Shown here in pieces: positions 7,675 through 59,769 of a DNA stretch of 64,000 nucleotides. Origin of the DNA: Candidatus Berkelbacteria bacterium (GTDB lineage Bacteria; Patescibacteriota; UBA1384; XYA2-FULL-43-10; CAINNR01). The stretch is from NCBI GenBank assembly GCA_037142675.1, contig JBAXAF010000004.1, forward strand, positions 326 through 64,325, written 5' to 3'. The translations under genes and the position numbers were made by a program. The notes beneath the pieces are model-generated. The model saw nothing but the letters and a program-made list of their open reading frames with translations, was not told the DNA's origin and did no database searches. Each line of letters begins with the position of its first letter. Within the stretch, counting starts at the first letter, position 1.

Positions 7675-7747
7675 CCAACACAAGAACATCAATGCAAGCG
7701 CTGGGCCTTCGGGTCTGGCGCCTTTTTTTGTCCAAATTATGTAACCC

Positions 7748-9190: not shown

Positions 9191-9234
9191 CTCAGGCGGT
9201 CTGCTCCTCGCAGACCGCTTTTTTTGTCCCAAAT

Positions 9235-9990
9235 TTAGCCTTCGCCGACTTTTGCCTCGGTGGATTTCTCCCACAATAGAGTGTGGAAAATTTTCATTGC
9301 CTCGTATAGTTCTTTACTCTTAATAAGCATGCCAAAGTTCTCTTTTTGCGTGCTAAAAACACTAAGTTTTCCTGTGTCGTAGATTCCAATTCCAACCTCA
9401 ATTCTCATCCCATCTGGTCCCCATCGCAACTCTCGCAAGTACTCCAAGCCGTGTGATGATGTTTCATAGTTAATATCTGTATCTTTGTATCGAATAGTTT
9501 TGATAAATATTCCCTTTTCAATTCGAGCTTTGTCGATCTCGGCGATTGATCGTACCCCGCCAATCATTTGAGTTGCGCTCCCTGGCCAAATGTAGAGTGC
9601 CTCTTTTTTGCACTTCAACTCCTCGCGGATAACATTGCGCACCTGATCTGGCCCCTCAAAATAACTGACGCGTGGTTTGTGTGGGGTTAGATTAAATAAG
9701 TCTATAAAAGCCGGCAAACTATCTTTTAGTTTTGCCAATCTTTCATTCTCGAGCTCAATCAGGCGTTCTGGCGACTCAGCTTTGTAATTCATTCGGCCGT
9801 TTTTCTCGAACTTTGATATCAAACCCAGTTCAACTAGGTGATCAATAAAGTAATAAATTGATGTTCGTTTAATGCCGGCACGAGCAGCGATTGGAGTAAT
9901 GGTTGAACTGCCAAGCTCCAAAATAGCCAAGTAGACCTTGGCTTCCTTCTCGTCCAACCCAAATTTTACTAGTGTGTCCTCTTTGTTCAT
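9235..9990 (-). CDS. TrmB-family HTH regulator (paralog 2)
   Basis: FGLDEKEAKVYLAILELGSSTITPIAARAGIKRTSIYYFIDHL; start chosen at MNKEDTL (RBS gagga); ORF-track N-terminal 25 aa are GC-rich and atypical. Confidence 0.75.
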   Translation of the reverse strand: MNKEDTLVKFGLDEKEAKVYLAILELGSSTITPIAARAGIKRTSIYYFIDHLVELGLISKFEKNGRMNYKAESPERLIELENERLAKLKDSLPAFIDLFNLTPHKPRVSYFEGPDQVRNVIREELKCKKEALYIWPGSATQMIGGVRSIAEIDKARIEKGIFIKTIRYKDTDINYETSSHGLEYLRELRWGPDGMRIEVGIGIYDTGKLSVFSTQKENFGMLIKSKELYEAMKIFHTLLWEKSTEAKVGEG

Positions 9991-10719: not shown

Positions 10720-10756
10720 AATCAAGTGCTGGCGAGCCAAAACGCAAGGAAATAAC

Positions 10757-11131
10757 ATGAGTGGTACAGTTGACGATTTGATGGCAGCGCTTCGGATGAT
10801 CGACAGTCACTCGCAGCAGCTTGATGAAGAAAAAGAGACCCTGGCGTTGGCGCGGCGTGTCATCTCCGATCGTCACTTCCGGCAGCTGGTTCAGCGGCTG
10901 GAAACCGATCGGGTTGGATTGGCACGCGAGATCCTCGAAGCCGAGCAGATCCGCATCGACAACACCCCGATCGAAGATCTGTCGCTGTCGGTTCGGACAT
11001 ACAACGGCTTGAAGAAGAGTGGTATCAACACCCTCGGAGAGCTGGCTGAGTGCACGAAGGAGAAGTTGGCAGGCATCCGCAACTGGGGCCGCCGCTGCCA
11101 GGAAGAAGTAGATGAGATTCTGAAGAAATAG
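10757..11131 (+). CDS. Standalone RNA polymerase alpha-subunit C-terminal-domain-like protein
   Basis: IEDLSLSVRTYNGLKKSGINTLGELAECTKEKLAGIRNWGRRCQEEVDEILKK resembles the RpoA alpha-CTD helix-hairpin-helix. Confidence 0.6.
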   Translation: MSGTVDDLMAALRMIDSHSQQLDEEKETLALARRVISDRHFRQLVQRLETDRVGLAREILEAEQIRIDNTPIEDLSLSVRTYNGLKKSGINTLGELAECTKEKLAGIRNWGRRCQEEVDEILKK

Positions 11132-11136
11132 GAGTG

Positions 11137-11188
11137 CTTTCGGACGACCGCTCTGAACTGTAACAGGTTCGGAGCCGTTTCCGAGGGA
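11137..11188 (+). repeat. 52-nt direct repeat, copy 2
   Basis: ctttcggacgaccgctctgaactgtaacaggttcggagccgtttccgaggga. Confidence 0.8.
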
Positions 11189-11214
11189 GATAATCAGAAA
11201 GGTGGTTATGAAGT

Positions 11215-14206: not shown

Positions 14207-15358
14207 ATGAAATTTCCTAAAAACTTTCTTTTTGGATCGGCGACCTCGGCTCATCAAATTGAAGGCCATTTAAATAACGATTGGGCACGCTGGGAAAAAA
14301 CTCCTGGCCATATTTCCGATGGCACAACGTCCGAAACTGGTGCTGATAGTTGGAATAAGTGGCGAGATGATATTCGGCTGCTTAATAATACCTCTCAGAA
14401 TGCCTACAGATTTTCCATTGAATGGTCACGAATTGAGCCAGAAGAAGGTATGTTTGATGAAGACGCTACCCAGCATTACCGGGAAATTATCAACGAGCTA
14501 AATAAGAATAATATCACCCCAATGGTGACACTTTTCCATTTCACCTGTCCACTTTGGCTTGACGATATTGGCGGTGTTGCCAGCAGAAAATTCGCCCGGT
14601 ATTTTGCTCGCTTTGCCGGCAGGATGGCGAAAGAATTCGGCCACAAGGTTGATCTCTGGTCGGTGATTAATGAACCCAGTGTATATGTTAACGCCGGCTA
14701 CATTATTGGTCATTGGTACCCGGGCAAGCGCAACATTATTGGTGGGGTCAAGGCATTTTTTCACCTTGTTTCTGCTCACAAACAAGCGTACATAAGCATG
14801 AAGAATGCTAACCCGAGGGTCAAGGTAGGAATTGCTATGAATATGACTGCATTTGCACCAGTTAAAAACACTTGGTGCAACCGTGTTCTAACGAGGGTAG
14901 CAAAATGGTTGGTAAATGAATATTCAATAAATTTGGTTCGCAAAAACCTCGACTTTCTCGGCATAAATCATTATATGTCACACAAAATTCAATGCAAAAA
15001 ACCAGTCATGTTTGACGAGGGTGGAGTTAAAAGCGAATATGGCTGGAGCGTTCACCCAGAAGGACTCTATCAAGTAATAATGGAAGCCAAGCACTGGAAG
15101 CTGCCAATCTACATTACAGAGAACGGCACGGCTGATTCATCTGATAAATTGCGACAATCATTCATCACCAATTTTTTAGAAAAATGCTCCAAAGCCATTG
15201 CTGATGGCGCCGACCTTCGAGGCTACTTTCACTGGTCCCTGATTGACAATTTTGAATGGGCGAGCGGATATTCGATGAAATTTGGCCTGCACACCATAGA
15301 CAGAAAACCCCGCAAATCGGCGGAGATTTATAAGAAAATTATAGAAAGTTCTAGATAA
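14207..15358 (+). CDS. GH1-family beta-glucosidase-like glycoside hydrolase
   Basis: FLFGSATSAHQIEG N-terminal signature and ITENG catalytic motif. Confidence 0.8.
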   Translation: MKFPKNFLFGSATSAHQIEGHLNNDWARWEKTPGHISDGTTSETGADSWNKWRDDIRLLNNTSQNAYRFSIEWSRIEPEEGMFDEDATQHYREIINELNKNNITPMVTLFHFTCPLWLDDIGGVASRKFARYFARFAGRMAKEFGHKVDLWSVINEPSVYVNAGYIIGHWYPGKRNIIGGVKAFFHLVSAHKQAYISMKNANPRVKVGIAMNMTAFAPVKNTWCNRVLTRVAKWLVNEYSINLVRKNLDFLGINHYMSHKIQCKKPVMFDEGGVKSEYGWSVHPEGLYQVIMEAKHWKLPIYITENGTADSSDKLRQSFITNFLEKCSKAIADGADLRGYFHWSLIDNFEWASGYSMKFGLHTIDRKPRKSAEIYKKIIESSR

Positions 15359-15367
15359 ATTTTGAAT

Positions 15368-15400
15368 AAAAAAGCCCTGGCGTGACAACAACCAGGGTGG
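15368..15400. terminator. Bidirectional intrinsic terminator
   Basis: aaaaaagccctggcgtgacaacaaccaggg; T-run on the minus strand. Confidence 0.65.
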
Positions 15401-15423
15401 GCACTCTTGGCTTTCGAACCAGG

Positions 15424-16293
15424 TCAGGCAGACCTGACCGTGGCAGCATCCTCGGGCTGGCCAATGATCTGGCGGTACTTGTCGCGTAGCTCCGGCGACA
15501 ACCTCTCTGTCATGCTGATAGCGTCTCGACGGCCGCACAGGCTATCGTGGTGAGTGATGTGGGCGGCAACCAGTTTTTCGACTGCCGCCTCACGTTTGGC
15601 CGGTGGGAAGAGCGGGATCATGCACTCGGCATAATCGAGCCGGTAACTGGCGCTGCATGCTTCGTGGAAAAGCGCACGAAGACGCTTCTGGTCTCTAATG
15701 AAACCGAGCTCGGAGCTGAAACCGTTGACATCGCGGTAGGTGTACTGCGATCGGTGATGTTCAGCCGGGTGCATATCCATCTCGAGCAGGGAGAAGAACA
15801 GCCTCTCAAATGCTGCGTGTCGCAACCGCTTCGAGTCGATGGCGCGGATCGACCGCAGTGTTTCTTCGACGTTCCAGAAGCCATACCGGCAAAGCTGCAC
15901 GTTGGCGGCGTCACGGTCCTTTTTTGGGAGACCGACGATTGCTTTTCGCACTATGCGAATGTCGGAGTTCCGACGTGCGAGGTACTTCGGCATCCAGGTC
16001 ATAACCTCGTCGGTGTTCAGGTGACGACCAACGACCTCGAGATCGCGAAGCATGCCGTCGTAGTTGTAGCCATTTTCAACCACAATGGCTACAACTTTGC
16101 CTGCCTGCCCAGGTTGGAGCTCCTTTGGCAGTAGCGGAATGGCGGTGATGAGCGCAATCCTGAGCTGTTGGTGGCTGATCATCTTATCGATGACACCTGT
16201 TACCAGCTCCACCTTTCGCTCGGCGCTCATGTCTTGGAAGCAGTAGCTTAGCTGGCGCTCATATTCGTCCCCCCCAGATGTGGCTGACGGCAC
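15424..16293 (-). CDS. GC-rich hypothetical protein (island F)
   Basis: 289 aa; overlaps the upstream gene by 35 nt. Confidence 0.55.
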   Translation of the reverse strand: MPSATSGGDEYERQLSYCFQDMSAERKVELVTGVIDKMISHQQLRIALITAIPLLPKELQPGQAGKVVAIVVENGYNYDGMLRDLEVVGRHLNTDEVMTWMPKYLARRNSDIRIVRKAIVGLPKKDRDAANVQLCRYGFWNVEETLRSIRAIDSKRLRHAAFERLFFSLLEMDMHPAEHHRSQYTYRDVNGFSSELGFIRDQKRLRALFHEACSASYRLDYAECMIPLFPPAKREAAVEKLVAAHITHHDSLCGRRDAISMTERLSPELRDKYRQIIGQPEDAATVRSA

Positions 16294-16798
16294 AGTTGTA
16301 CCTGGCCATGACTAAGCAATGCAGCCGGTCTTCTGAGCGGTATTTGCTATTGGTCAGGCTTGAAGCATCCCTGGCCTGGTAATCGTAGCCGCCGAGGATA
16401 GTCAGCTCGTGAATTCGTCTTCCGACCTGTTTGCGCAGATGTTTTGTTTCGATCTTCCGGCACCAGTTGATCGCCGCCCAGAGTAGGGCCGCTGATCTGT
16501 GGTTATCGCTGCAAATTTCGACCTCAGCGATAAACTGGTTACAGGCTGCAAGTCGAAGATTATCAGCCTTGTCGCCGAGAAGTGCAGCAATTCTTGAGAG
16601 TGATTGCTCGGACTGGTGGATAGTGCGCCCGGTCATCCCGCCACCAGGTGTGATAATCACCATCCAGTGGATTAAGGACTTGGCGCATACCATCAACTGG
16701 TGATAAGTCAGACTGTGTCCGAGTTGGGTCACCAGGGTCACGGCCGCGTCAATATCACCAGCGATGATCAGAGCAGACAACAATTGCAAGGATCTCAT
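16259..16798 (-). CDS. GC-rich hypothetical protein (island F)
   Basis: 179 aa; RBS gagagg; minus-strand promoter TTGATT-17-TATAAC at about 16842-16870. Confidence 0.55.
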   Translation of the reverse strand: MRSLQLLSALIIAGDIDAAVTLVTQLGHSLTYHQLMVCAKSLIHWMVIITPGGGMTGRTIHQSEQSLSRIAALLGDKADNLRLAACNQFIAEVEICSDNHRSAALLWAAINWCRKIETKHLRKQVGRRIHELTILGGYDYQARDASSLTNSKYRSEDRLHCLVMARYNCAVSHIWGGRI

Positions 16799-16919
16799 TG
16801 TAGGTTCCTCTCACAAATCGGGTTGATTGTGAAACACCTAAGTTATATCAGCAAGCAATATTTTAATCAAATTTAATAAAAAAAACGCGGCGAAGGAACT
16901 CGCCGCGTGTACTCTTTGC

Positions 16920-18578
16920 TCAGATGTATCCGCTTTTTAGCCGGAAGTACATTCTGGCACTCACGTAACGGAAGAGGCGGACAGCTCGCGCCAGCCTGAC
17001 TCGTTGTGACGGTGAACTCATCAGAAATCCTGCTACTGCATGCTCGTCTTCGGCTGTTGCCAGCTTTTCGATGGCGTAGGCATGCAGCCCCTTTGGATGT
17101 ATGGGGTAGAGCCACTTGCTTTTGAAACAAATAGCTTCGGTGATGATTGGAATATAAGCTGGCGCAAGCTCAGATTGCCGGCTTATTTTGATGCCTGTGA
17201 CTGTCGGCATCAGCCCATGCCAGTTGATTGAACGGACGACCCAGTCGCGCTCATTGGCGCTGACGTTATCCAGTAACCCAGCCAGCAGGACAGGACCAAT
17301 ACGCTGGATGGCGGCGCGGTACTCGACTTCTGACGCGCCTTTGCAGAATGTCATTGCGGCGCCAACATGTTCGGCCCCAAATCGGCGTTCAAGAGCCCCA
17401 AAACTCATTGTGTGTGCCAAAGGCTTCAGCATTGCCGGCACAATCAGCGGGTTTCTGGACAACTCTGGAATGATCTCCTGTTCGGGACCGAAGATTCCCA
17501 TTTGTGGGTACCTTGGCAAAAGCAATTCTTGGGTCGCCATCCGCGCTTCTGACCGGTCGATGCGATTGCAGTTTCTGATCACCTCGCCAGCATCAACTTC
17601 TTCCAGTGCAACCGCCCAGAGGATGATCATCTTGCCGCCTTGATTCCCCCGATAGAGCGCATCAGGTGCGCCCATCTCGAAGGCCTCGACTACCCAGTGT
17701 CTGTCTGTCGGCGACCTCCATGTCTGGATGGCTTCTTGCAGTTCTCTCTCCTCAATCGACTCGATCTCGTTTTGTTTTGACAGCGCCAAGATCGCCGACA
17801 CCTCGGTTACCGTGCCGCGCCGGCCAAGTAATACCGAAATGACGGGAAGCAGGAAACCAGCCATTGGGAGACCGTGGTTTGCTACCAGGTTCGCAGCCTC
17901 GTGAATAAGTAGCGGCTGTCGTCCCCGACGATCGATCGTCTCTGCCTCGTAGAAAAGGCTAATGATCTGCCGTTCGTCCAGCCCTTCTACCCGAAATCGG
18001 CTGGCAAGCGCAGAGATGTAATCGTAGCCGAGCTCGGCGGTGTGGTAGCCCCACCAGAACCGGTCTTGAGCGTGTTCGTATTGTGGGTCATGATACTCTG
18101 GCAGTACGCCACGTCGGGAGGTCTCAGAAGGTGGAGGAGCCAAGTCCATGCCCATTTTGATCTCGGCTAGCCCGAACTTGACCGCTCCATCGATGTAGGA
18201 AGTCAGTCGGTTCGTGCCATAAGGATATTCCATATGTAGCACAAACTCGGTGGTCTCGCAGACCAGGTCGTAATTTCCGGCCTTAATCTGCCTGCCAATC
18301 TTCACCGAACAGTAATCATCAAGCGCAAGTTTGAACTTCGCCTGATACTCTATTAGCCTGGCCAGTGTTGGGTAGCCAATACGGGCAGCAATGTGCTTGA
18401 GCAGTTTGACGTATGCCCAAAGGCGCACATCTCCCTTTTCGGTGGTCACTTCGCACTCGTCATCACACTTTGTGACCTTTGGCTGAAGGCGTCGGACCTG
18501 CTGCAAGAGCTTCAAGCTCTCCAACAGAAACGGCTCAAGTTTGCCACTAATCTCCAAAAGTGCAACCCATGGTCTCAT
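16920..18578 (-). CDS. GC-rich large hypothetical protein (island F)
   Basis: 552 aa; minus promoter TTGACA-16-TAAGAT at 18609-18636; terminator cgcggcgaaggaactcgccgcg at 16888-16910. Confidence 0.6.
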   Translation of the reverse strand: MRPWVALLEISGKLEPFLLESLKLLQQVRRLQPKVTKCDDECEVTTEKGDVRLWAYVKLLKHIAARIGYPTLARLIEYQAKFKLALDDYCSVKIGRQIKAGNYDLVCETTEFVLHMEYPYGTNRLTSYIDGAVKFGLAEIKMGMDLAPPPSETSRRGVLPEYHDPQYEHAQDRFWWGYHTAELGYDYISALASRFRVEGLDERQIISLFYEAETIDRRGRQPLLIHEAANLVANHGLPMAGFLLPVISVLLGRRGTVTEVSAILALSKQNEIESIEERELQEAIQTWRSPTDRHWVVEAFEMGAPDALYRGNQGGKMIILWAVALEEVDAGEVIRNCNRIDRSEARMATQELLLPRYPQMGIFGPEQEIIPELSRNPLIVPAMLKPLAHTMSFGALERRFGAEHVGAAMTFCKGASEVEYRAAIQRIGPVLLAGLLDNVSANERDWVVRSINWHGLMPTVTGIKISRQSELAPAYIPIITEAICFKSKWLYPIHPKGLHAYAIEKLATAEDEHAVAGFLMSSPSQRVRLARAVRLFRYVSARMYFRLKSGYI

Positions 18579-18684
18579 GGTTGGCCTCTATTCTTGAGTA
18601 TCGCACTCATCTTAGCTCATGATTGTTTTATGTCAATAAAAAAAGGCGGGTATTAGCCGCCGTTAGTATTTGTGCAAGCCAACT

Positions 18685-19503
18685 CTACTGTTGGCGTGGG
18701 TCCCTGACAGGCATGACTCCTTGGTTTGACAGACCGTGGTCTACAGTGTGGACCAGCGGGGAGCCGCCGGAGAGCGGTGACATGAGCCATGCGATATGGT
18801 TGGCCACGTCTTCAGCCTTGGTGTTCACCCCTAATGGAACGGCGTGTGGCACGGCCTCGTATAATGAGCCGAAGTTCTTAACTCCCTTCGCCGCGATGGT
18901 GTTGATCGGCCCAGCGTCCAGCAGGTGGATGCGCACATTGGACTTTCCCATGTCGCCGGCAAGGTAGAGCGCTATTGAATCCAGTAGAGATTTGGCACTC
19001 GCCATTTGCCAGTAGTCCTCGATGTACTTCTCGGCACCCAGGAGGAAAGTCATCGCCACTCCCACAGCACCGTCGTTTAGCCGCCGGCCGAACCCCATGG
19101 CACCTGGGCAGAGTAAGGCTTTCGACATCCAGTGGAAGGAAAGGGCATTGAGACTGAGTGTCTCGATCCATTCCTCGGTGGTCATTGAGAGGAAGTTTCG
19201 TCCTTCCTGCTGAATGCTTGCAGGAGCAGCAGCCACGCTGTGGAGGTATCCATCAAGCATGATCCCTCTGTCTTGCAGTTCGCAGCGCAGGCGGACAAAA
19301 TCATCCTCGATCGAGAAATCACACGGGAGGATGATCTCGCCATCCTGGCGGAATTTTTCCGCTCTTTCAACAATGCTCGGATGGCATGTGATTACGGGCC
19401 TTCCTCCGTGGTTGCGAACTGCTTCAACGGTAGCCGTTCCGATGCCGCCGCGTAGGCCGACGCCGGAAACAAGTATGGTTCGTCCTTCAAGTAATCGTGA
19501 CAC
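18685..19503 (-). CDS. FabI-like enoyl-ACP reductase / SDR family (island F)
   Basis: ILVSGVGLRGGIG...Y-x6-K (YWQMASAKSLLD)...DAGPINTIAAKG...VDHG aligns with FabI; GTG start with RBS aagaggtg; promoter TTGACA-18-TATTTT at 19550-19579. Confidence 0.7.
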   Translation of the reverse strand: MSRLLEGRTILVSGVGLRGGIGTATVEAVRNHGGRPVITCHPSIVERAEKFRQDGEIILPCDFSIEDDFVRLRCELQDRGIMLDGYLHSVAAAPASIQQEGRNFLSMTTEEWIETLSLNALSFHWMSKALLCPGAMGFGRRLNDGAVGVAMTFLLGAEKYIEDYWQMASAKSLLDSIALYLAGDMGKSNVRIHLLDAGPINTIAAKGVKNFGSLYEAVPHAVPLGVNTKAEDVANHIAWLMSPLSGGSPLVHTVDHGLSNQGVMPVRDPRQQ

Positions 19504-19667
19504 TAGAAAGCACCTCTTTGGGTTGCTGGTTTTATGGGTCTGCAAGAAGGAAAATACCATTTTTTATTATTGATGTCAATGACATCCAGGGCGGTAGAAC
19601 TAATATCTGACCAATCTGATAATTTTTGTGGTAAAATAGATCTAAATATTAAGGAGGAGGAAATATT

Positions 19668-22416: not shown

Positions 22417-22496
22417 GAAATGTTCCAGGGCGAGAGACAGTCTGTCTTTATGACCCCTCAGAGAACATCGTGTCGTGCATAAGGAGAGTGGAGAGC

Positions 22497-23051
22497 ATGC
22501 GCTCTATCACTGCTAGCTTGATTGTTCTGATTCTCGTTGCGAGCATCGCTTTCGCGCAGGGCAAGGACGCCAGGCGCCAGCGACCGCCGAACCCACAACA
22601 GGCGTTCCAGCGGGGACAGACCTGTAACACGCCGCAACAGCGGCGCCTGCAGCCCCATCGGCAGTACGACGCTCCTCGCCGCAACGACCGCGACCACGGA
22701 CGCCGCCCGATCACATTGGGCAGCATCCTCCACGACATCTTCAGCTCGCCTGTCGTCATCGTGGACGAGCGGCCAGACTACTATCCGCAGGTTTGCCAAA
22801 CGTCGCGCGTCGCAAAGGTTGTCGATGTGGACGGCGAAAATGTGTATGTGAACGCGCCGTTTGCAGTTGGTAGCCGAGTCCTTGATGTGTCATGGGTTCT
22901 CGACCCGGTGACAGACAGGAGAATATGTCGAAAAACCGACGCGACGCTAGTTGTTGTCGCATCAGATGGCCACAGATCTTCGCTCTGTCGGGTCATAAGT
23001 ACGGAGCCATGGTGCTTCGTCGCCCCGGGAGACGAAATAGTAGTACGCTAG
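22497..23051 (+). CDS. GC-rich small secreted protein (cassette G)
   Basis: MRSITASLIVLILVASIAFAQG signal peptide; RBS aaggagag; terminator gtgtctggcaatgaaattgccagacac at 23065-23100. Confidence 0.55.
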   Translation: MRSITASLIVLILVASIAFAQGKDARRQRPPNPQQAFQRGQTCNTPQQRRLQPHRQYDAPRRNDRDHGRRPITLGSILHDIFSSPVVIVDERPDYYPQVCQTSRVAKVVDVDGENVYVNAPFAVGSRVLDVSWVLDPVTDRRICRKTDATLVVVASDGHRSSLCRVISTEPWCFVAPGDEIVVR

Positions 23052-30188: not shown

Positions 30189-30511
30189 ATAAGACCCCTC
30201 TCTATATAGAAGAATGAATTATGAATGCAGAATTGTGAATTATGGTTTACCCAACATTCATCATTCTTGATTCAGTATTCACGTTATTTTTATCCCTATA
30301 ACCATTATAATCTGCAATAATATCGCCGTCAACAACCCCCCGTCATTCCGGATCTTCCGCAGTCTTTCGAAGATGACCCCGCGGGGTGACCCTGTGGGCT
30401 CGATCCGGAATCTGACAAACAAATTTCGAATTTGCGAAAAATCAAGATCAAAAAAAGAGCGGGGCTTGTTAGCCCCGCTATGTGCGGCGTTGGACTTGCT
30501 GGTTTTTGGCA

Positions 30512-30694
30512 TCACCGGAAAATCAGGAAGGTGATGACCGCCGGCGGAAGCCAGGCCGTGATAACCATGATTACGCCGATTGTACCTGCGGTTATCCTCC
30601 ACTTACTCATCTGGTGTTTAGCTGCCCATACTAGGAGATAGCCAGCTGCCAGGAGCTGGCATACTACAAGGACCATAAAGACAAGCGGTTGCAT
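30512..30694 (-). CDS. GC-rich 60-aa two-TM membrane peptide (cassette H)
   Basis: MQPLVFMVLVVCQLLAAGYLLVWAAK...; terminator agcggggcttgttagccccgct at 30448-30480. Confidence 0.45.
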   Translation of the reverse strand: MQPLVFMVLVVCQLLAAGYLLVWAAKHQMSKWRITAGTIGVIMVITAWLPPAVITFLIFR

Positions 30695-30706
30695 GACGTT
30701 TCCCTT

Positions 30707-31543
30707 CTATTGAAGTTTGGACAGCACTTCTAACACGGCCAGTGACCCGTAACCGATCTGTTGACGTCGCCCATGGTGAAACAGCAGGCACTCTGAGGGT
30801 GGTGGGTTGTTATCGTACTCAGTCGGAAGACCTAGCAGTGCCCGCTCGAGGAGTGTCATGCCAGAGCAGTTCTGTCGGACCGTCTGCCTGAAGGCCGTGA
30901 TGACATCGGCCAGTTCCGAGCTGACATCAGTTTGGTGGTCAGTCAGCAGTCTTTCGGCGAAAAAGGCTGAGACCGAAGGGGTGTAGAAGAGGGTCGAGGT
31001 CATGAAGTCCTCTACAGAACGCAGGCTTCTGGCTACATATTCCACGGTCCTCTTGGTGGCTTCGCCTAGACCACCCAGAAGGAAGTGGAGCCTGAGAATG
31101 TTGATCGAACTGGTCGGGTCCCAGTAGCTACCCGGGTTGTAGGGTGAGTAGTCGTCCTTGACCCAAACCCCGGTGCCCTTCTCGCTCTCGGAATTGGCGA
31201 TCAGTAGGTCGCGTGTCGGTGAGAGTGAATCGACGGATATCAACCCGGCTCTCACTAGCAGCCAGATGATAAACGCTGTATCCTCCCAGTCCGGAGGATA
31301 GAACGGGTTGAAGCACCAGAGCGCTCGTCCCTCACACTCATCCGGCACCCTCCTCGAGCTGAGAAATGTCAGCGCTTCAGCTACCTGTTTCTCGTCCATG
31401 TCGGTGAGCTGCGCGAGATAGACAACGATCGCCGTTATTGCGACCGTATCGACAGTTCTCGCCTCCCCCGTCTCCTTGTTATACATCGTCGTCGGCACCT
31501 GACCCGATTTCAGCTGCCCCGACAACTTTGTAGCGCCGATTGC
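30707..31543 (-). CDS. GC-rich hypothetical protein (cassette H)
   Basis: Start MAIGATKL with RBS gggag; about 278 aa. Confidence 0.55.
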   Translation of the reverse strand, partial: AIGATKLSGQLKSGQVPTTMYNKETGEARTVDTVAITAIVVYLAQLTDMDEKQVAEALTFLSSRRVPDECEGRALWCFNPFYPPDWEDTAFIIWLLVRAGLISVDSLSPTRDLLIANSESEKGTGVWVKDDYSPYNPGSYWDPTSSINILRLHFLLGGLGEATKRTVEYVARSLRSVEDFMTSTLFYTPSVSAFFAERLLTDHQTDVSSELADVITAFRQTVRQNCSGMTLLERALLGLPTEYDNNPPPSECLLFHHGRRQQIGYGSLAVLEVLSKLQ

Positions 31544-31689
31544 CATAATTATCACTCCCGTCCAAGTTTGTCCGATTTGTCAGACAGCTAATTATAGGTG
31601 GGTTACTTGCTAATATCTATACCGATTGACAGAAATACCGAAAAGATCTAAAATTAGTCTATAAATCAGTTGTCTAAAAGGTTCGACAA

Positions 31690-36466: not shown

Positions 36467-36597
36467 ACAGTTTCTAACCGATTCTAGCATTTTCAAAGTC
36501 GAATGACAACCGCTTGACAGCATCTCTTAGCGTCTGTTACGTTCATGGGGCCGAAAGGCGTACCTATCAAACGCTCTTGAAAGGAGCGAATACAATC

Positions 36598-37995
36598 ATG
36601 TCGGATACTCTTCTGTCTGCGGACGAGATCTGGGCTGCAGCGTTGCCGCTCCTTACCGAGCGGATTAGGCTCACGTCGATTGTCACTATGTTACGCAATG
36701 CTGAGGTTATCAGCTACGATGGCACGACGTTTGTGCTTGCTGTGAATGGTGACTTTTCCAGGGGGTTGCTTGTGGACGGTTTGCATCTTCCGACGATTAC
36801 CACCTGCTTGGAGCAAGTCGCCAAACAGCCAGTTCAACTTCAGGTTGAGGCGTCAGCTAATGCTGTGCCTTTGGCTGCTGTTGGATGTGCTGCAGAGCAA
36901 GTGCGACAGGAAAGTTTGCCCGTGGCTCAGCCACTGAATACCAGGTCGTCGCATGAGCAGCTTGAGACTATGCCGCTCAACGACCGTCATACCTTCGACA
37001 ACTTTGTTATGGCTGACTGCAATCGTTTTGCATTCAGCGCTGCCCAACAGGTTTGCCGAAACCCCGGGCGCAGCTACAATCCACTGCTCATCCACAGTAA
37101 GTCGGGTTTGGGCAAGACCCACCTGATGCAAGCGATCGGGCACGAGATACGCTCCCAGCACAGTGACATGGAAGTCGTCTACGTGTCCGCCGAGAACTTC
37201 GTCAACCAGATCATCTCTGCTATCCGCGACAATCGCACCGCCGAGTTCAGGCGGCGCTACCGCTACGTGGATGTCTGGCTGGTGGACGACATCCAGTTCA
37301 TCGCCGCCCTTGATGGCCCGGCGTCCGAAGAGGAGTTCTTCCACACCCTCAACACACTGTGTATCAACGACAAGCAAGTCGTCATCGCGTCGGATGTGCC
37401 GCCTCGTCAGTTGCAGATCGTGAATGTCCGTCTACGGAGCCGCCTCGAGATGGGAATTTTGGCCGACTTGCGTGCTCCGGATCTCGAAACTCGCATCGCC
37501 ATTCTCGAGAAAATGGCTGAGGCGGAGAAGACTCATATTCCTCGTGAAGTTTTGGAGTATTTGGCCAAGAAGGTAGAGAACAATATCCGAGTTCTTGGTG
37601 GGGCACTGCTGCAGTTAGTCGCCTATGCATCGTTGCATGGTAAACTAACTCTGGCGCTGGCCGGAGAAGCTCTGGAGAGCTACTCCACCAGCAAAGATGG
37701 GCGGCAGTTCAGTCTGGCCGAGATTGTTACCTACATCGCTGAACGATTCACCCAGAAGGCAAGTGATATCACTGGCCCAAAACGGAGCAAGGAGCTCGCC
37801 TGGCCACGGCAAGTAGCGATTTACCTCTGTCGGGAGCTGACCGACTACTCGCTGAGTGATATCGGTCACTTCTTCAACGACCGAGACCACTCAACCATCA
37901 ACTATAATTATGGAGTGGTACGCGACAGGATAGGAGAGGACGAGCAAACCCTCTGGCTGATGAACGACATGAAGGCACAACTGCGCGGTAGCTAG
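36598..37995 (+). CDS. Second, GC-rich DnaA-family replication initiator paralog (cassette J)
   Basis: Start MSDTLL (RBS aaaggagcg); AAA+ SKSGLGKTHLMQAIGHE; C-terminal HTH ...RQVAIYLCRELTDYSLSDIGHFFNDRDHSTINY...; terminator ccgccctgtgtatccgggcgg plus T-run at 38008-38040. Confidence 0.8.
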   Translation: MSDTLLSADEIWAAALPLLTERIRLTSIVTMLRNAEVISYDGTTFVLAVNGDFSRGLLVDGLHLPTITTCLEQVAKQPVQLQVEASANAVPLAAVGCAAEQVRQESLPVAQPLNTRSSHEQLETMPLNDRHTFDNFVMADCNRFAFSAAQQVCRNPGRSYNPLLIHSKSGLGKTHLMQAIGHEIRSQHSDMEVVYVSAENFVNQIISAIRDNRTAEFRRRYRYVDVWLVDDIQFIAALDGPASEEEFFHTLNTLCINDKQVVIASDVPPRQLQIVNVRLRSRLEMGILADLRAPDLETRIAILEKMAEAEKTHIPREVLEYLAKKVENNIRVLGGALLQLVAYASLHGKLTLALAGEALESYSTSKDGRQFSLAEIVTYIAERFTQKASDITGPKRSKELAWPRQVAIYLCRELTDYSLSDIGHFFNDRDHSTINYNYGVVRDRIGEDEQTLWLMNDMKAQLRGS

Positions 37996-47805: not shown

Positions 47806-48087
47806 ATGGCACATAAGAAAGCTGGCGGTAGTACAAGTTTAGGGCGGGATTCGGTCTCCAAGCGACTTGGGGTCAAGATTTTTGGTGATGAAAAAATTGT
47901 TGCTGGTAATATCATCATTCGTCAAAAAGGTACCAGATACTTGGCAGGTGCTAATGTTGGCGAGGGTAATGATCGCACACTTTATGCTAAAAAAGACGGT
48001 TTTGTTAAATATTCTCAAATCAAAAAAACTACATTTTCCGGTTCAAAGATCAAAAAGACCAGGGTTGCAGTAGCTGATCAAAAGTAA
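47806..48087 (+). CDS. rpmA: 50S ribosomal protein L27
   Basis: [27 protein letters not shown]... Confidence 0.92.
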
Positions 48088-48099
48088 GTTTCTGACAAA

Positions 48100-48640
48100 A
48101 GGCATCTTGAAAGATGTTTTTTGTCAGCCACTTGTTGTCGGCTGCATTCTGTGAAAACGGAGAGGTGCCCCAATGATTTGGGGAGTTGTATGGCAGACAT
48201 GCCCCTTAAGAGACGCGATAGCGCGTTCTCCATCCACGTAAGGGTAAGGTCCCAGATGAACATCGAAGCACACACCGTAGTCGTGCCTCCTGGTCTCTTG
48301 GGGCGAAGCCCCGTGACCTAGAGGCTACATTATGTCGAAGGATGCCAAGTCGAAAGAAGAGCCAGTAGAACAACGTCCTGGATCGCCAATGGCTAGCGCA
48401 CTGGCGACAGAGTGGGCGACTGGCTATTGGGGCGAGTCCAGTGTTGACGCACGCGGCAAGGCTGGGCAGAAGTAAAACAATAGTAAGCGCTCGAGGTTCA
48501 CGTGCGATTCCTCGATCGCAATCGAACAACACTCACTAATCTGGTGAGAGTTACCGCGAGAAAAGCGGATGTTTGCCCGGCGCAGGCGTGAGAGCCCCTG
48601 CGCCGCTCTCTCTGAGTTCAATCAATTGAAAATAGAGATG
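48100..48640. other. GC-rich 540-nt unassigned segment: candidate structured ncRNA and/or a 49-aa ORF (48332-48481)
   Basis: Markedly GC-rich versus flanks; many local hairpins (ccccaatgatttgggg, cggcgcaggcgtgagagcccctgcgccg); no convincing long ORF. Confidence 0.3.
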
Positions 48641-48682
48641 GGCGGATCAGAAAAATGACAAAATCAGAATGAAGAATGACGA

Positions 48683-49312
48683 ATGAAAGTAAAAGAAAAA
48701 ATTATGCACAAAGTAAACCTTTCAAAATTCATGAAAAAGAATATCCCCGACATTCACACCGGAGATACTGTTAAAGTTCACCAGAAAATCAAAGAAGGTG
48801 ACAAGGAGCGCGTACAGATTTTTGAAGGCCTGGTTATTGCCACCCACGGTGGGAAAAGCCTCGATGGTTCGTTTACTGTTCGCAAAGAATCATTTGGCGT
48901 TGGCGTTGAAAGAATTTTCCCAGTTCACTCCCCACGTGTTGTTAAAATAGAACGAATTAAACAATCAAAAGTTCGTCGAAGCAAACTATATTTTATGCGC
49001 GAACTTTCCGGTAAAAATGCCAGGTTGAAAGAATTAAATCGCGATTACGCAATGTGGGAAGAAAAAGGCGTTGAAGAAGAGCTAGAAAAAATCGCCGAAG
49101 AAACTGCCAAACTTGCTGAAGCCGCCGCCGCCGAAAAAGAAGCCGAAGAAGCCGAATTTGAGAAAAAGGCCGAAACTGCCATTAAAGCCCATGGTCACAC
49201 TCCTGGCGAAAATGAGCCAAAAGACGAAGAAGATGTTACTCCAGGCTCAGCCGAAGATGAGAAAAAAGCCCAGTCAACTGAAGAAAAAGCCGACAAAGCC
49301 GCAGAAAAATAA
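48683..49312 (+). CDS. rplS: 50S ribosomal protein L19 with Glu/Ala/Lys-rich C-terminal extension
   Basis: ...TGDTVKVHQKIKEGDKERVQIFEGLVIATHGG... Confidence 0.88.
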   Translation: MKVKEKIMHKVNLSKFMKKNIPDIHTGDTVKVHQKIKEGDKERVQIFEGLVIATHGGKSLDGSFTVRKESFGVGVERIFPVHSPRVVKIERIKQSKVRRSKLYFMRELSGKNARLKELNRDYAMWEEKGVEEELEKIAEETAKLAEAAAAEKEAEEAEFEKKAETAIKAHGHTPGENEPKDEEDVTPGSAEDEKKAQSTEEKADKAAEK

Positions 49313-49429: not shown

Positions 49430-50848
49430 ATGGGCGATAATGAAGACGAACTACAATCACTTGGGGAAGAGCAACGAATATTTGAGGCCCAGCAGGACGA
49501 AGCAGCGCGGTTGGCTGCGTCTACCCGCGAAGCGGAGCTGCGGGCTGATCACATTGCTCATGTGGCGGCGGCTAGCCACTCTGATCTTAGAAAAGCTGCG
49601 GTCGAACGGGACGCAGAGATGAGGGCGACTGGTTTGGCTGAGATACGCGAAACACTGGGTTCGCCCGAAGGTGTTCAGGAAAAAGCCGACGTACTAAGAT
49701 CAGAATTTGACGCCAGCTTGCTCGAGATTGCAGAATTAAGACAAAGCATTGCAAGAATCAGGGAATTTGTCCCAGAAGGCAGGCCAATGTCACCAGTTCT
49801 TGCAACTAAGATTGAGGCAATCGAACAGCGTCGAGCTGGAATTGAGAATGGTCTAGGTGCATTGCTGCAAAAGTCAGACGAGGCAAAAAGTTTAGCAGAG
49901 AATGTTAAAAGTTACGATCGGCTAAAGACTGAAATCGATCTGCTCCGTCAGGGAACAGATGAAATCTATGCCATGCCTGGAGTCGCTGATATACTTTACC
50001 AAGAAGCGATTGATACAGACGAAAAGGAAACTTGGGCTGTTGAAGCCGGGAAACAGGAGCGTCGAATAGCCAGAGAGCAAGCATTGGCTATCGAAAAAGA
50101 AACCGCCCAAGCGGCCGAAAAGGAGAAATCGCTCAAAGAAGAGATAATCAAGAAAATAAGTGATCGCGCTAGCCGCATACCGACAAATACAGGCACGGAA
50201 AAAGACCCTCGCCGAGTTGAGTTCACTGAGCCATTAATTTCTGCTTTTTTAGATGATGCATTGGAACAATCTGGAATTAATGGAATTGAACTAACCGCAG
50301 CTAGTGCCGACAGGAGAAGAGAGTTAATTAGAGCCGTAGCTCAACAAATTGAATTTGGTTTAAATACCCGTTGGAATGGACAAGACTATCCCAATGGCTT
50401 TGGCTCTGATCCAAGCGAGGCAAAAAGGGTTTATGCTCAAAGTGATCCTAAGAACTTCGGAAGACAACTTGGTAACATGCTGGGGACTCAAATGCACGAG
50501 GCGGGTAGTCCTGATGTGCTAGGCCATGTTATTGGTTCCGATAGTGGCGTTCGGGTTCGTGAGGCTCGTAAATGGCATAGAAGCATTCCGTTTATTGTTG
50601 GTTTTGCTAGGGGAACACAGGAGGTTCGTTCGGCAACAAAAATTCAAGAACAACCATATCGTTTGGTTGACGCCCATGCTTCGCAGGCTTTATTTGGAGG
50701 TCTAGCAAGTCGTGTAAGGCTTGGTGAAATGGTTTTCAGAGATAATATTGCCAGATCTGCGTTTGAGCAAGGAGTTACAAGGTCTGAGCAAATTTATCAG
50801 AGAGCTCATAGCGTCGACGCCAATGAACAGGTAGCCGCAGAAAAATAA
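49430..50848 (+). CDS. Hypothetical coiled-coil protein (472 aa) flanked by direct repeats
   Basis: RBS taggagc; moderately GC-rich; ends ...QVAAEK, reusing the repeat-encoded last codons. Confidence 0.6.
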   Translation: MGDNEDELQSLGEEQRIFEAQQDEAARLAASTREAELRADHIAHVAAASHSDLRKAAVERDAEMRATGLAEIRETLGSPEGVQEKADVLRSEFDASLLEIAELRQSIARIREFVPEGRPMSPVLATKIEAIEQRRAGIENGLGALLQKSDEAKSLAENVKSYDRLKTEIDLLRQGTDEIYAMPGVADILYQEAIDTDEKETWAVEAGKQERRIAREQALAIEKETAQAAEKEKSLKEEIIKKISDRASRIPTNTGTEKDPRRVEFTEPLISAFLDDALEQSGINGIELTAASADRRRELIRAVAQQIEFGLNTRWNGQDYPNGFGSDPSEAKRVYAQSDPKNFGRQLGNMLGTQMHEAGSPDVLGHVIGSDSGVRVREARKWHRSIPFIVGFARGTQEVRSATKIQEQPYRLVDAHASQALFGGLASRVRLGEMVFRDNIARSAFEQGVTRSEQIYQRAHSVDANEQVAAEK

Positions 50849-50901
50849 TATTTACTTGCTCTATAGAAAAAACGCCCCAGAAATGGTGGCGTTTTTTTGG
50901 T
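50833..50901 (+). repeat. 67-nt direct repeat copy 2
   Basis: Identical to copy 1 apart from one extra T in the T-run. Confidence 0.9.
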
Positions 50902-50959
50902 TAAGTTGCTTGATGGCTAGCGATTAAAAAAACCGACCAAGCGAGGGCGAGGTCGGGTG

Positions 50960-51556
50960 CTATTGGCCACCGAGGCCAGTTAGGTTATAAGAAAATCCAA
51001 TTGAGACTTGTGGGTCGTTGGTAAATAGCTTGATCTCGAGGTGTCTACCAACTTTGCGAACGACTCCAACACCAAAGTTGTGCTCCTTGGCGCTCCACAG
51101 GCCACGGAGTTGGATTTTCGTCCCTTTGACCGATAGTTCCCAGCGCTCTATCTCCAGCGTAGGTGACATTTCGGCCTTCACCATTAAAGGCTGGTAATAA
51201 CGGACAGAATTCCTACTTGTTAGGTAGTGAACCTGAAAGTAGATTTCCTGGTCCCCGGCCAGAAACACGGTCGGCCCTGGCTTCTGCACCACTCTCAGTC
51301 CAAGTAGAAACGGCTTGTGCAGACAGGACATTCCCGCCCCGATCACCCTGAAACTCATTACAGCTTCGTCCGTTTTGCCGCCCCCATCCCTTGTCAGCCG
51401 CAAGCTCATTGTTGTCGTATAAAGCGTAGACGATACGATGTTCTTGCTAGCCTCAAGGCTAATGACAATGGGAAGACTTGGCCAATCTTCTTTTTTTTCC
51501 TCTGCCCAAAGTGGTAGGCAGAAGAAAAATGCGACTATAATCATCGCGATTTTCAT
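50960..51556 (-). CDS. GC-rich secreted protein (cassette L)
   Basis: Start MKIAMIIVAFFFCLPLWA signal peptide; minus promoter TTCACA-16-TATAAT; terminator ccgaccaagcgagggcgaggtcgg at 50927-50950. Confidence 0.55.
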   Translation of the reverse strand: MKIAMIIVAFFFCLPLWAEEKKEDWPSLPIVISLEASKNIVSSTLYTTTMSLRLTRDGGGKTDEAVMSFRVIGAGMSCLHKPFLLGLRVVQKPGPTVFLAGDQEIYFQVHYLTSRNSVRYYQPLMVKAEMSPTLEIERWELSVKGTKIQLRGLWSAKEHNFGVGVVRKVGRHLEIKLFTNDPQVSIGFSYNLTGLGGQ

Positions 51557-51664
51557 TTTGCCCACATCCTTTGGTATGCGCAGATGGTTCCGCGGCAATT
51601 ATAGCACTTAAATTTGAATTGTGAACCAAGAATTATGGATGATGGGATAATTAGTTACGTTGTA

Positions 51665-51693
51665 TTGACAAATCAATGCAACATATGTTACAA
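51665..51693 (+). promoter_or_regulatory. Promoter TTGACA-17-TTACAA(T) giving a leaderless transcript
   Basis: ttgacaaatcaatgcaacatatgttacaat; ATG at 51704 lies about 3 nt after the predicted TSS. Confidence 0.5.
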
Positions 51694-51703
51694 TTTAATC
51701 ACT

Positions 51704-51958
51704 ATGCAACATAACGATTACATCTCAACAATTGAAGCATCTAGCATTCTTGGGTTGGACCGAACTCAGGTATTCCGCCTGATCCAGAGTGGAAAAATTC
51801 CGGCTGTAAAAATCGGCCGTAATTTCGCAATTAAAAAATCAGACCTGGGAATTTACGGTGGAGAAGTATCAACAAAAGAAAAAAAGAACATCGAACTATC
51901 GGTAGACAGAGTTTTTGCGGAATATGGTGACGTGATCAAAAAATTGGGAGAGGAGTGA
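51704..51958 (+). CDS. HTH (excisionase/MerR-like) antitoxin candidate
   Basis: ISTIEASSILGLDRTQVFRLIQSGKIPAVKIGRNFAIKKSDL; 4-nt overlap (ATGA) with the downstream toxin. Confidence 0.65.
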   Translation: MQHNDYISTIEASSILGLDRTQVFRLIQSGKIPAVKIGRNFAIKKSDLGIYGGEVSTKEKKNIELSVDRVFAEYGDVIKKLGEE

Positions 51959-52377
51959 TCTACAAAATCTCAATCGAAGAGGTTGAGCTTATTGCTCACC
52001 GAATGGCAAAAAATATAATGGAGTGGGATGAGCCGATTCCCGATTTTTCAACTCGCTATCCGAATGTTCTGGAGAGCTGCTTGGCTGTGCCGTTTCAATC
52101 GTTTGGCCGCAAAGATTTGTATTCTACTTTGGTCAAAAAGGCGGCAATTTTGTTTTATTTAATGATAAAAAACCATCCGTTTCAAAACGGAAATAAACGG
52201 GTTGCAGTGACCACACTTTTCACCTTCTTGGGAAAAAATGACAAGTGGCTGAAAGTTGATAATCAAGAACTCTATAATTTTGCTGTTTGGGTCGCATCTT
52301 CACCAGCAGAATTTCAGGCAGAAATTCTCGCCGCCGCTGAGAAATTTATTAAAAGAAATTTAGTTAGTTCAAGCTAA
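51955..52377 (+). CDS. doc: Doc/Fic-family toxin
   Basis: HPFQNGNKRVAVTTLFTFL matches the Doc motif HxFx(D/N)GNKR. Confidence 0.8.
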   Translation: MIYKISIEEVELIAHRMAKNIMEWDEPIPDFSTRYPNVLESCLAVPFQSFGRKDLYSTLVKKAAILFYLMIKNHPFQNGNKRVAVTTLFTFLGKNDKWLKVDNQELYNFAVWVASSPAEFQAEILAAAEKFIKRNLVSSS

Positions 52378-59225: not shown

Positions 59226-59681
59226 TCATCCTCCATTTTTCTTGGCGATGTTCTTTTTCCGGCCAGATCCTTGGAGTGAAGCCATCAGCAACTTTTCATC
59301 ATCGGAGAGGTATCGGTTGCAGGCCTCGGCGATGCTGTGCTGGGTGCACTTCAGACGTTTGTGCATTTTGGCGGCAGACGGGTAGATGTTGGCTTTCAAG
59401 CGCCAGCGGACTGCGACCAAAACGCGTTTGGTTTTGTCGCAGGTATGACGTCCGCGTTGTCGTTTTGGCTTTTGGGGCCACTTGGTCTTTCTTTTTCTCT
59501 TCCGCTCTGCTGGCGCCAGATCCCTGGTCAAGATCTGCCCGATCCTTGTCCCGGTTACCCCGTAGTGCTTCCCCAGTTCCTCGTTGGTTTGGTACTTGCG
59601 TTCACCGCGGATCATCGCTCGAACTCGGGCGATCAGATCCTTGGTGTCAACTTTAGTTTCGGCCAAACTGACCACCTCCAT
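59226..59681 (-). CDS. GC-rich small DNA-binding protein with sigma-70 region-4-like HTH and basic tail
   Basis: EELGKHYGVTGTRIGQILTRDL; KRKRKTKWPQKPKRQRGR; promoter TTGACC-17-TATATT at 59694-59722, so the mRNA is (near-)leaderless; start 59681 or 59690. Confidence 0.5.
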   Translation of the reverse strand: MEVVSLAETKVDTKDLIARVRAMIRGERKYQTNEELGKHYGVTGTRIGQILTRDLAPAERKRKRKTKWPQKPKRQRGRHTCDKTKRVLVAVRWRLKANIYPSAAKMHKRLKCTQHSIAEACNRYLSDDEKLLMASLQGSGRKKNIAKKNGG

Positions 59682-59769
59682 CGTTCTCATGACAATATAG
59701 CGGAAAAAACAACTCCGGTCAATCAGCGGATTGATAATTAGGCACAAATATGGTAAAATTTTCTAGTAA

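Follow-up and report, generated by a model that had tools for sequence, protein, structure and literature searches.

We favour, with moderate confidence, the view that the GC-rich block between rpmA and rplS represents, in partly decayed form, an accessory GC-rich cassette for small proteins, in which translation of the second of two small reading frames (ORF2) is predicted to be masked. The block lies in a 64-kb stretch of DNA that was analysed as a whole (64,000 nucleotides; hereafter the window). The cassette is lineage-restricted and so far undescribed; masked small-ORF mRNAs are already known as a type of element, among which this one is unusual in its gene-sized slot, swapped between strains. 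To date only Candidatus Berkelbacteria have been seen to carry it, and in each case it lies between rpmA and rplS. A complete cassette would constitute one structured mRNA, which encodes a zinc-ribbon micro-protein (ORF1) followed by a small protein (ORF2). The ribosome-binding site (RBS) of ORF2 would be locked in a conserved helix, in which an anti-SD of the form CCUCC... pairs with ...GGAG, and the ORF2 segment is exchanged for unrelated sequence between near-clonal strains, with the leader and the 3' hairpins remaining constant. The copy in the window has lost the zinc ribbon of ORF1. Its 3' hairpins remain, as do a 47-aa ORF2 and all four helices of the leader.

The insert between rpmA and rplS

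The host of the window is a member of Candidatus Berkelbacteria (CPR/Patescibacteria). The closest named genomes are Berkelbacteria MAGs, and several lake metagenomes hold identical copies of the window contig. The gene order at the locus is dnaE (minus strand), a 421-aa methyltransferase-like gene, rpmA, the gap and rplS. Alignment with a relative (L005) placed the start of L19 at 48704 rather than at the upstream ATG at 48683, and the gap extends over 48088-48703 (616 nt). The features of the locus are collected in Table 1.

A first-pass annotation of the sequence had reported a GC-rich block between these two ribosomal protein genes, and our measurements confirmed both its existence and its placement. 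GC content was 0.51-0.57 across 48100-48600 (200-nt windows), compared to 0.36-0.43 on either side and to 0.439 over the full 64 kb; that of the rpmA-rplS gap was 0.55-0.57, compared to 0.44 for the window. The same annotation had correctly described a terminator behind L27, where a hairpin followed by a T-run is indeed present and is probably a weak L27 terminator, and had correctly stated that the block lacks a long credible ORF: the longest plus-strand ORF bearing an RBS, which is also the sole such ORF in the gap, encodes 47 aa. Its remark that the block contains many local helices was likewise borne out, as the plus strand folded better than shuffled sequences (z = -4.2; 0 of 100 shuffles were as good), with a value of z = -2.7 for the minus strand. 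The argument that a GC-rich island in an AT-rich genome points to an RNA gene did not hold for this genome, since the window contains ~15 comparable islands (GC 0.53-0.59), most of which hold ORFs. No second copy of the block, or of any part of it, was found in the 64-kb window, and a repeat family was rejected on this basis. We identified no promoter for the block. Since no terminator was found between the block and rplS, we infer that the two are probably co-transcribed.

Table 1. Coordinates of the rpmA-rplS locus in the window
Feature	Position	Strand	Basis
rpmA (ribosomal protein L27), upstream neighbour	47806-48087	+	Pfam PF01016, E = 6.6e-30
Long A/U-rich hairpin, inner stem CATCTT-GAA-AGATG, then TTTTTT; 5' cassette border	48092-48127	+	Read from sequence
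Short hairpin CAGCC-ACTTGTTGT-CGGCTG	48125-48144	+	Read from sequence; conserved in L017
ORF1 remnant with retained RBS GGAGAGG (48159-48165)	48159-48241	+	Comparison with relatives, window translation
CCCCAATGATTTGGGG hairpin within ORF1 remnant region	48168-48183	+	Sequence
Leader domain 1: helix H1, CCCTT (48203-48207) with AAGGG (48240-48244), enclosing hairpin H2 (48210-48230)	48203-48244	+	RNAalifold
Leader domain 2: helix H3, CCTCCTGGTC (48286-48295) with GACCTAGAGG (48315-48324), enclosing H4	48286-48324	+	RNAalifold
Hairpin H4, GGGGCGAAGCCCC	48300-48312	+	RNAalifold, inside H3
ORF2, 47-aa hydrophilic protein MSKDAKSKEEPVEQRPGSPMASALATEWATGYWGESSVDARGKAGQK	48332-48475	+	ORF listing; NCBI hypothetical protein WCG99_01670
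3' untranslated hairpins A-D	48487-48604	+	Minimum-free-energy fold
Hairpin A	48487-48519	+	Minimum-free-energy fold
Hairpin B	48532-48548	+	Minimum-free-energy fold
Hairpin C, CCGC-GAGAAAA-GCGG	48554-48568	+	Minimum-free-energy fold
Hairpin D	48579-48604	+	Minimum-free-energy fold
Terminal stem-loop E (CTCTCTCTGAGTTCAATCAATTGAAAATAGAGATGGG), 3' cassette border	48606-48642	+	RNAalifold, 15-pair helix
rplS (ribosomal protein L19; Lys/Glu/Ala-rich C-terminal tail), downstream neighbour	48704-49312	+	Pfam PF01245, E = 2.6e-41; start by L005 alignment

Related loci were fetched through their flanking proteins, and lineage numbers refer to those sampled. The first-pass annotation had pointed to relatives as a place to look for the segment, and most of those sampled do carry it: a GC-rich gap of 616-1150 nt separates L27 from L19 at the same place in 13 lineages (L005, L017, L018, L020/22, L024, L028, L029-36, L045, L051, L052, L077, L079 and the window). 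In two Berkelbacteria lineages, L037/38 and L039-44, the insert is absent and L27 and L19 lie 0-19 nt apart. Berkelbacteria can evidently do without the insert, which we class as accessory.

Similarity between the gaps at the DNA level was limited to the 5' hairpin, ~130 nt before the small ORF and the terminal stem-loop, and the comparison revealed a common plan. A full cassette starts with a hairpin and T-run after L27, continues with a strong RBS (GGAGGTTGCC) before ORF1, and then has a spacer that starts at the ORF1 stop codon (UAA-GCCCUU). ORF2 (40-130 aa) follows this four-helix spacer and is itself followed by several GC-rich hairpins, in several lineages with the motif (A)CAACTGAATG ahead of them. 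The 3' end is formed by a conserved terminal stem-loop (CGTTCTCTCTGA...TAGAGAAGAACG), after which rplS begins.

The two borders of the window copy conform to this plan. At the 5' border, the long A/U-rich hairpin is conserved in L017, L051, L005, L024 and L020, and the equivalent of the short hairpin that follows it reads CAGCAACC...GGTTG in L020 and L005. At the 3' border, relatives possess hairpins equivalent in form to A-D that differ in sequence, and stem-loop E was the only one of these elements that could be aligned for covariation. Several of its 15 pairs displayed compensatory changes. It is the best-conserved element across the window, L017, L051, L005, L052, L020 and L029, and the lineages in which L27 and L19 abut lack it.

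Leader helices and the two small reading frames

The RNAalifold consensus of the leader, built on seven lineages, comprises four helices (H1-H4), with the pairings CCCUU/AAGGG in H1, CCUCCUGGUC/GACCnnGAGG in H3 and GGGG...CCCC in H4. A covariance model (R1) made from this alignment matched the window at 48187-48337 with 120.5 bits, a score as high as that of copies still carrying ORF1. It found exactly one match per cassette-bearing locus of this subgroup and of the L029-36 group, and none elsewhere in the 224 kb searched, which took in the remainder of the window. In an alignment of 14 sequences, which was fitted to the model and so favours the structure, and in which many rows are strain variants of one lineage, 90.6% of cells were paired, compared to 27-54% when the partners were slid by 1-3 columns. 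Compensatory changes were present in 12 of the 25 leader pairs, and none of 500 shuffles reached the observed values. Pairing amounted to 96.6% in H1, 89.8% in H2 (compensatory changes in 5 of 7 pairs) and 88.5% in H3, where 4 of 9 pairs displayed compensatory changes on both sides.

The RBS of ORF2 (GAGG, 48321-48324) sits in the 3' strand of H3. The SD thus lies within a compensatorily conserved helix, the arrangement that characterizes an SD-masked small-ORF mRNA. The succession of anti-SD, inner hairpin and SD recurs with different nucleotides in the distant lineages L028 and L079. Since the 3' strand of H3 is itself the SD of ORF2, initiation at ORF2 would be masked for as long as H3 is paired.

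Upstream of the leader, the window contains a 22-codon remnant of ORF1 at 48173-48241 (MIWGVVWQTCPLRDAIARSPST, followed by a stop codon), from which the zinc-ribbon core has been deleted. At the same position in L052, L005, L029/30, L028, L079, L077 and L045, the motif GGAGGTTGCC precedes an ORF of 27-46 aa with a CxxC...CxxC pattern, exemplified by MKKWHACATCGELFQSEEEFPPCRMCGNPTCPSPRQ in L052 and MAEYKPPKWICSTCGRIHGSNGPCKSCGNLTVESRL in L029. In three independent pairs, pS of ORF1 was 0.51-0.58 compared to a pN of 0.18-0.20, and this held in its own frame only. ORF1 in the relatives is, as judged from these substitution patterns, a coding frame, and its product is a predicted zinc-ribbon micro-protein. 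An assignment to the ribosomal zinc-ribbon proteins L32, L33 or L36 was rejected, as ORF1 is acidic to neutral rather than basic and has no Pfam match. The zinc ribbon was likewise lost in L017, L051 and L020/22, and the cassette as a whole may be decaying in the subgroup formed by the window, L017, L051 and L020.

In relatives, the stop codon of ORF1 abuts the foot of the first leader helix, H1. Ribosomes terminating on ORF1 would for this reason melt the leader, opening H1 and H2, and subsequent refolding would free the RBS and permit translation of ORF2. We infer from this geometry that the two frames of a full cassette are translationally coupled.

The first-pass annotation had listed a 49-aa ORF with a weak RBS at 48332-48481. 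The ORF is present, while its length and end required correction (47 aa, ending at 48475), as did the assessment of its RBS: as judged from its sequence the site is not a weak one (GAGG, 7 nt ahead of the ATG), though it is base-paired. Support for the coding capacity of ORF2 came from related alleles. Comparison of L017 with L005 yielded pS 0.81 and pN 0.37 in frame, whereas the other two frames gave pS 0.35-0.38 and pN 0.52-0.53; synonymous changes included CGC to AGG for Arg and AGC to TCG for Ser. Selection at the protein level, the companion of a masked SD in mRNAs of this type, was thus found for these related alleles. Furthermore, each of the 12 distinct ORF2 alleles has an open frame 5-10 nt after the same masked RBS; multiplied over the alleles, the probability of this by chance is 1.7e-15. 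Given a frame-specific excess of pS over pN and open frames in all alleles, ORF2 is very probably coding in general. For the window allele the coding assignment is suggested by its position, by an intact frame (P = 0.09 of arising by chance when considered by itself), by 44% identity to the L052 allele and by a loosely shared motif, SAL..AT.G.

Beyond identical copies and the L052 allele, neither a word-indexed search nor an exhaustive profile search detected other homologues of the window ORF2. The former returned query members only; the latter independently recovered one more member of the L017/L005 ORF2 family (P0126), together with a PPR-repeat protein that we regard as spurious. ORF1 and ORF2 alleles gave nothing above threshold in Pfam, PADLOC or PHROGs, with sub-threshold matches to CxxC/zinc-ribbon patterns only. 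An AlphaFold model of ORF2 consisted of one helix at low confidence (pLDDT 58).

Several ORF2 alleles end in ...SAF.AAT.GGG, which prompted the idea of a double-glycine leader of a bacteriocin or pheromone. This was rejected, as the hydrophobic spacing is wrong, the 'mature' peptide would comprise 4-16 aa and no C39 transporter is encoded nearby. Two further ORFs overlapping the block, a 108-aa antisense ORF (48206-48532) and a 66-aa plus-strand ORF (48121-48321), were judged to be spurious: neither has a Pfam match, both span covarying helices, and what corresponds to them in relatives lacks conservation at the protein level. The 66-aa frame is scrambled between the window and L017 by a pair of indels (+4/-4).

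Exchange of ORF2 between strains and alternative explanations

The L029-36 group consists of eight contigs with an identical L19 protein, among which we found three unrelated ORF2 alleles, two ORF1 alleles and recombinants among them. When L029 was compared to L031/L032, the 1.8 kb upstream and the 3.5 kb downstream were 99.4-99.7% identical, and the 290 nt of ORF2 between them could not be aligned. L020 and L022 exhibited the same pattern, with an unalignable ORF2 between near-identical flanks. The switch to unrelated sequence starts just after the RBS and ends shortly after the ORF2 stop codon. ORF2 may, to judge from this pattern, be under diversifying or frequency-dependent selection; the constant leader and 3' hairpins probably act as the homologous arms through which it is exchanged.

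Several recognized routes to such variability were considered. With regard to integron cassettes, no integrase was present among the Pfam-scanned or Pfam-annotated neighbours of the block, and inspection of the cassette borders by eye revealed no attC core (GTTRRRY). A diversity-generating retroelement target was rejected, as the 64 kb hold no second copy and the alleles vary in length, are unalignable and are not A-specific in their differences. Phage origin was also rejected: two conserved DNA motifs had 2 and 22 matches in IMG/VR, roughly the number expected by chance, and none of these fits the covariance model. The fallback suggestion of the first-pass annotation, another foreign cassette, came nearest to the truth, in that the block belongs to an accessory, hypervariable cassette. 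Its main suggestion, a structured RNA or a tiny ORF, was partly right on both counts, the tiny ORF being very probably real and set within conserved RNA helices.

The more specific proposal, that the block encodes one of RNase P RNA, tmRNA, SRP RNA and 6S RNA in canonical or divergent form, belongs to a broader alternative in which the block is a stand-alone structured non-coding RNA, possibly new and large, with incidental ORFs. The favourable fold of the plus strand fits such an RNA, as do the compensatory changes in its helices and its high GC content, and open frames of ~47 codons are not rare in sequence of this kind, as the probability given above for the window ORF2 illustrates. Nonetheless, comparison with known families gave no match. 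Rfam 15 at gathering thresholds returned six tRNAs only from the 64-kb window, and at E ≤ 10 both strands of 47950-48800, the comparison that the annotation had advised, yielded noise below 17 bits with no RNase P RNA, tmRNA, SRP RNA, 6S RNA or ribosomal-protein leader. RNase P RNA (RF00010/RF00011) had no match in the window, in 47950-48800 at E ≤ 10 or in 14 related loci; ARAGORN reported 6 tRNAs and 0 tmRNAs in agreement with the lack of an Rfam match to RF00023; SRP RNA, 6S RNA and the L19 leader (RF00169, RF00013, RF00556) were all without a match at E ≤ 10; and no Rfam family was found in the homologous regions of 14 relatives. The absence of the element from the lineages in which L27 and L19 abut excludes a housekeeping RNA in general. 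Moreover, the central third of the block is swapped for unrelated sequence of different length, which a folded core would not tolerate, the ORFs display a frame-specific pS well above pN, and one of the conserved helices is an exact anti-SD/SD pairing before a start codon. We therefore regard a stand-alone RNA as very unlikely.

Two other explanations accept the small ORFs as part of the element. One holds that the block is a cis-regulatory leader of rplS, in which the act of translating ORF2, rather than the peptide, remodels the downstream hairpins and sets the expression of L19; the sequence of ORF2 would accordingly be under no constraint. The lack of a terminator before rplS, the position of the conserved hairpin E ~60 nt before the L19 start, and the fact that the frame of ORF2 stays open in every allele despite extreme variation in its sequence and length are all in keeping with a leader. 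Lineages with L27 and L19 0-19 nt apart manage without it, however, the peptide itself is under constraint in one ORF2 family or more, and the L19 leader known to Rfam was not matched; we give this explanation little credence. The other holds that the copy in the window is a non-functional relic of a horizontally acquired cassette that is on its way to loss, a process already complete in the lineages where the two ribosomal protein genes abut. It draws on the reduction of ORF1 to a 22-codon remnant, the dispensability of the cassette, the GC-rich islands with orphan ORFs that are scattered through the window, and a window ORF2 that is the second-shortest allele and lacks a close homologue. Against this stand the retention of all four leader helices, of RBS spacing, of an intact ORF2 and of the terminal hairpin, and a covariance score as high as that of ORF1-bearing copies. 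In addition, the ORF1-less form is common to at least four diverged lineages (the window, L017, L051 and L020/22), the leaders of which still covary, and it is therefore better described as a stable variant than as fresh decay. A relic thus appears unlikely, if less so than the two preceding alternatives, and a partly decayed small-protein cassette with a masked ORF2 remains the explanation that we prefer.

Comparison with known systems and significance

SD-sequestering leaders occur in the mRNAs of type I toxins (hok, tisB), and coupled cistrons occur in RNA phages (MS2). The cassette resembles these systems in that the SD of a short ORF is paired with an upstream anti-SD in a stable, conserved helix with structured RNA at its flanks, and in that the base of the structure coincides with the end of an upstream reading frame. 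In contrast to hok and tisB, the ORF2 peptides are hydrophilic rather than membrane toxins, and no antisense RNA gene or promoter was found. A type I toxin-antitoxin system was rejected on the basis of the hydrophilic peptides and of the lack of an antisense promoter or terminator identifiable in the sequence, an antisense RNA itself being possible. Unlike all three systems, the module occupies a single, constant chromosomal position between two ribosomal protein genes, and it shares no sequence relationship with them.

For ORF1 the nearest counterparts are one-domain zinc-finger micro-proteins of archaea, which were reportedly the subject of a study in Haloferax. The corresponding Pfam families (DUF7128/7129/7130) provided the best matches of the relatives' ORF1, which were sub-threshold. 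Unlike members of these families, ORF1 scores 16 bits compared to a cut-off of 25.7, its host is bacterial (CPR), and it is absent in the window.

Strain-variable cassettes with conserved arms include integron cassettes as well as immunity, pherotype and O-antigen-type loci that are exchanged by homologous recombination. The sharp switch from >99% identity to an unalignable, gene-sized segment, and the presence of several alleles and recombinants in one population, are features that the insert shares with such loci. In contrast to integron cassettes, neither an integrase nor an attC-like GTTRRRY core was seen, and the locus offers a single slot rather than an array; unlike strain-variable cassettes more generally, its cargo is one tiny ORF and its conserved arms consist of helices in the very RNA that carries this ORF. 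With RNase P RNA, tmRNA, SRP RNA and 6S RNA the block has in common that it spans a few hundred unannotated nucleotides, rich in GC and well folded, within a genome of higher AT content, whereas it matches none of their covariance models and is dispensable, hypervariable and equipped with candidate translated frames.

These findings remove a false lead: a CPR genome's missing RNase P RNA or tmRNA is not to be found in this block. They instead describe a compact, conserved module of RNA and micro-protein that gene callers mostly miss or label as 'hypothetical'. Literature searches returned nothing on an insert at the L27-L19 locus, and to our knowledge hardly any work has addressed small proteins, or how they are controlled, in CPR/Patescibacteria. 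Within ~600 nt, at a fixed and easily amplified site between two universal genes, the locus unites a covarying helix that masks an RBS, a zinc-ribbon micro-protein in relatives, and a gene-sized slot that differs between strains otherwise 99.5% identical. It offers a practical marker for strain-level diversity and a testable case of recombination-driven turnover of micro-proteins in organisms that cannot yet be grown alone.

A broader proposal, which we advance tentatively and consider doubtful at present, is that the L27-L19 insert represents an undescribed strain-diversifying locus of CPR bacteria, at which the conserved helices of a single-slot cassette would serve both as a translational gate, from zinc-ribbon ORF1 to masked ORF2, and as recombination arms for swapping unrelated micro-protein genes among near-clonal cells. 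If true, the locus would have a part in conflict or recognition, with phage, the host cell or sister strains as conceivable partners, and the many other GC-rich orphan islands in the genome could stem from the same process.

Shared features of the swapped ORF2 segment

Otherwise dissimilar proteins encoded by ORF2, the second small ORF of the GC-rich cassette between rpmA (L27) and rplS (L19), which is swapped between strains, have in common a C-terminal motif, S-A/Y-F/L/V-x-A-A/I-T/S-x-G-x-G. It was found in the alleles of the related loci L005, L017, L020, L029, L030 and L079, and in P0126, a further member of the L017/L005 family; examples are DVSAFSAATRGGG, TSAAFSVTGGGS and ISYVTAIGGSG. 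The codons used for this motif differ, indicating that conservation is therefore at the protein level. The window allele carries a looser form, ASALATEWATG.

Several otherwise unrelated cassettes also contain (A)CAACTGAATG(Y)C immediately 3' of the ORF2 stop codon, where the swapped segment has its 3' edge. The version in the window is degenerate (TAAAACAATAGTAAG, 48473-48487). This element may be where recombination or processing occurs.

The AT-rich cassette borders of several relatives share a perfect 20-nt palindrome, CCTGCCTGCCGGCAGGCAGG, accompanied by inverted GAATGACGAATGA / TCATTCGTCATTC words. In the window, GAATGACGAATGA words occur at 48660-48690; the palindrome is absent.

Location of border motifs, genes 3' of rplS and GC-rich islands (gap, the L27-L19 interval of a relative)
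Feature	Locus	Position	Remark
Palindrome CCTGCCTGCCGGCAGGCAGG	L029	1353-2497 (gap positions 26-45)	
Palindrome CCTGCCTGCCGGCAGGCAGG	L052	1820-1839	
Palindrome CCTGCCTGCCGGCAGGCAGG	L045	gap positions ~645-668	
(A)CAACTGAATG(Y)C	L028	gap ~765-775	
(A)CAACTGAATG(Y)C	L029-36		just 3' of ORF2 stop
(A)CAACTGAATG(Y)C	L051	gap 405-417	
(A)CAACTGAATG(Y)C	L079	~1640-1652	
472-aa ORF	window	49430-50848	no Pfam family
212-aa ORF	window	within 49430-52377	- strand; between 472-aa ORF and HTH_17 + Fic pair
HTH_17 + Fic gene pair	window	51614-51958 and 51955-52377	followed by UPF0102/NERD-like gene
GC-rich islands	window	4667-6117, 7079-7726, 8153-9265, 10752-11194	
GC-rich islands	window	15348-19547, 22428-23049, 30451-31561, 59257-59689	

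The rpmA-rplS neighborhood

Bacterial rpmA and rplS are usually found as rplU-rpmA and trmD-rplS. In all of these Berkelbacteria, rpmA directly adjoins rplS, downstream of dnaE and a methyltransferase-like gene (window 47806-49312). L19 itself (window 48704-49312) bears a Lys/Glu/Ala-rich C-terminal extension of ~85 aa that varies in both length and sequence among relatives, with total L19 length ranging from 165 to 230 aa.

The most distant relative having an L27-L19 gap is L018, whose L19 is 57% identical. Its gap (584-1661) contains ORFs of 78 aa and 197 aa instead, both lacking a Pfam family. Searching this locus with the covariance model of cassette leader helices H1-H4 gave no match.

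Another stretch differing between relatives lies 3' of rplS, at 49430-52377; gene content of the interval from rplS to UPF0102 in relatives is distinct from that of the window.

GC-rich islands elsewhere in the window

Approximately 15 GC-rich islands are present in the window, with a GC content of 0.53-0.59 compared to 0.44 for the window as a whole. Ten islands were tested, and in nine of them the ORFs were without a Pfam family; the exception is dnaA (36514-37995). These islands may be additional accessory or orphan cassettes resembling the L27-L19 insert in nature.
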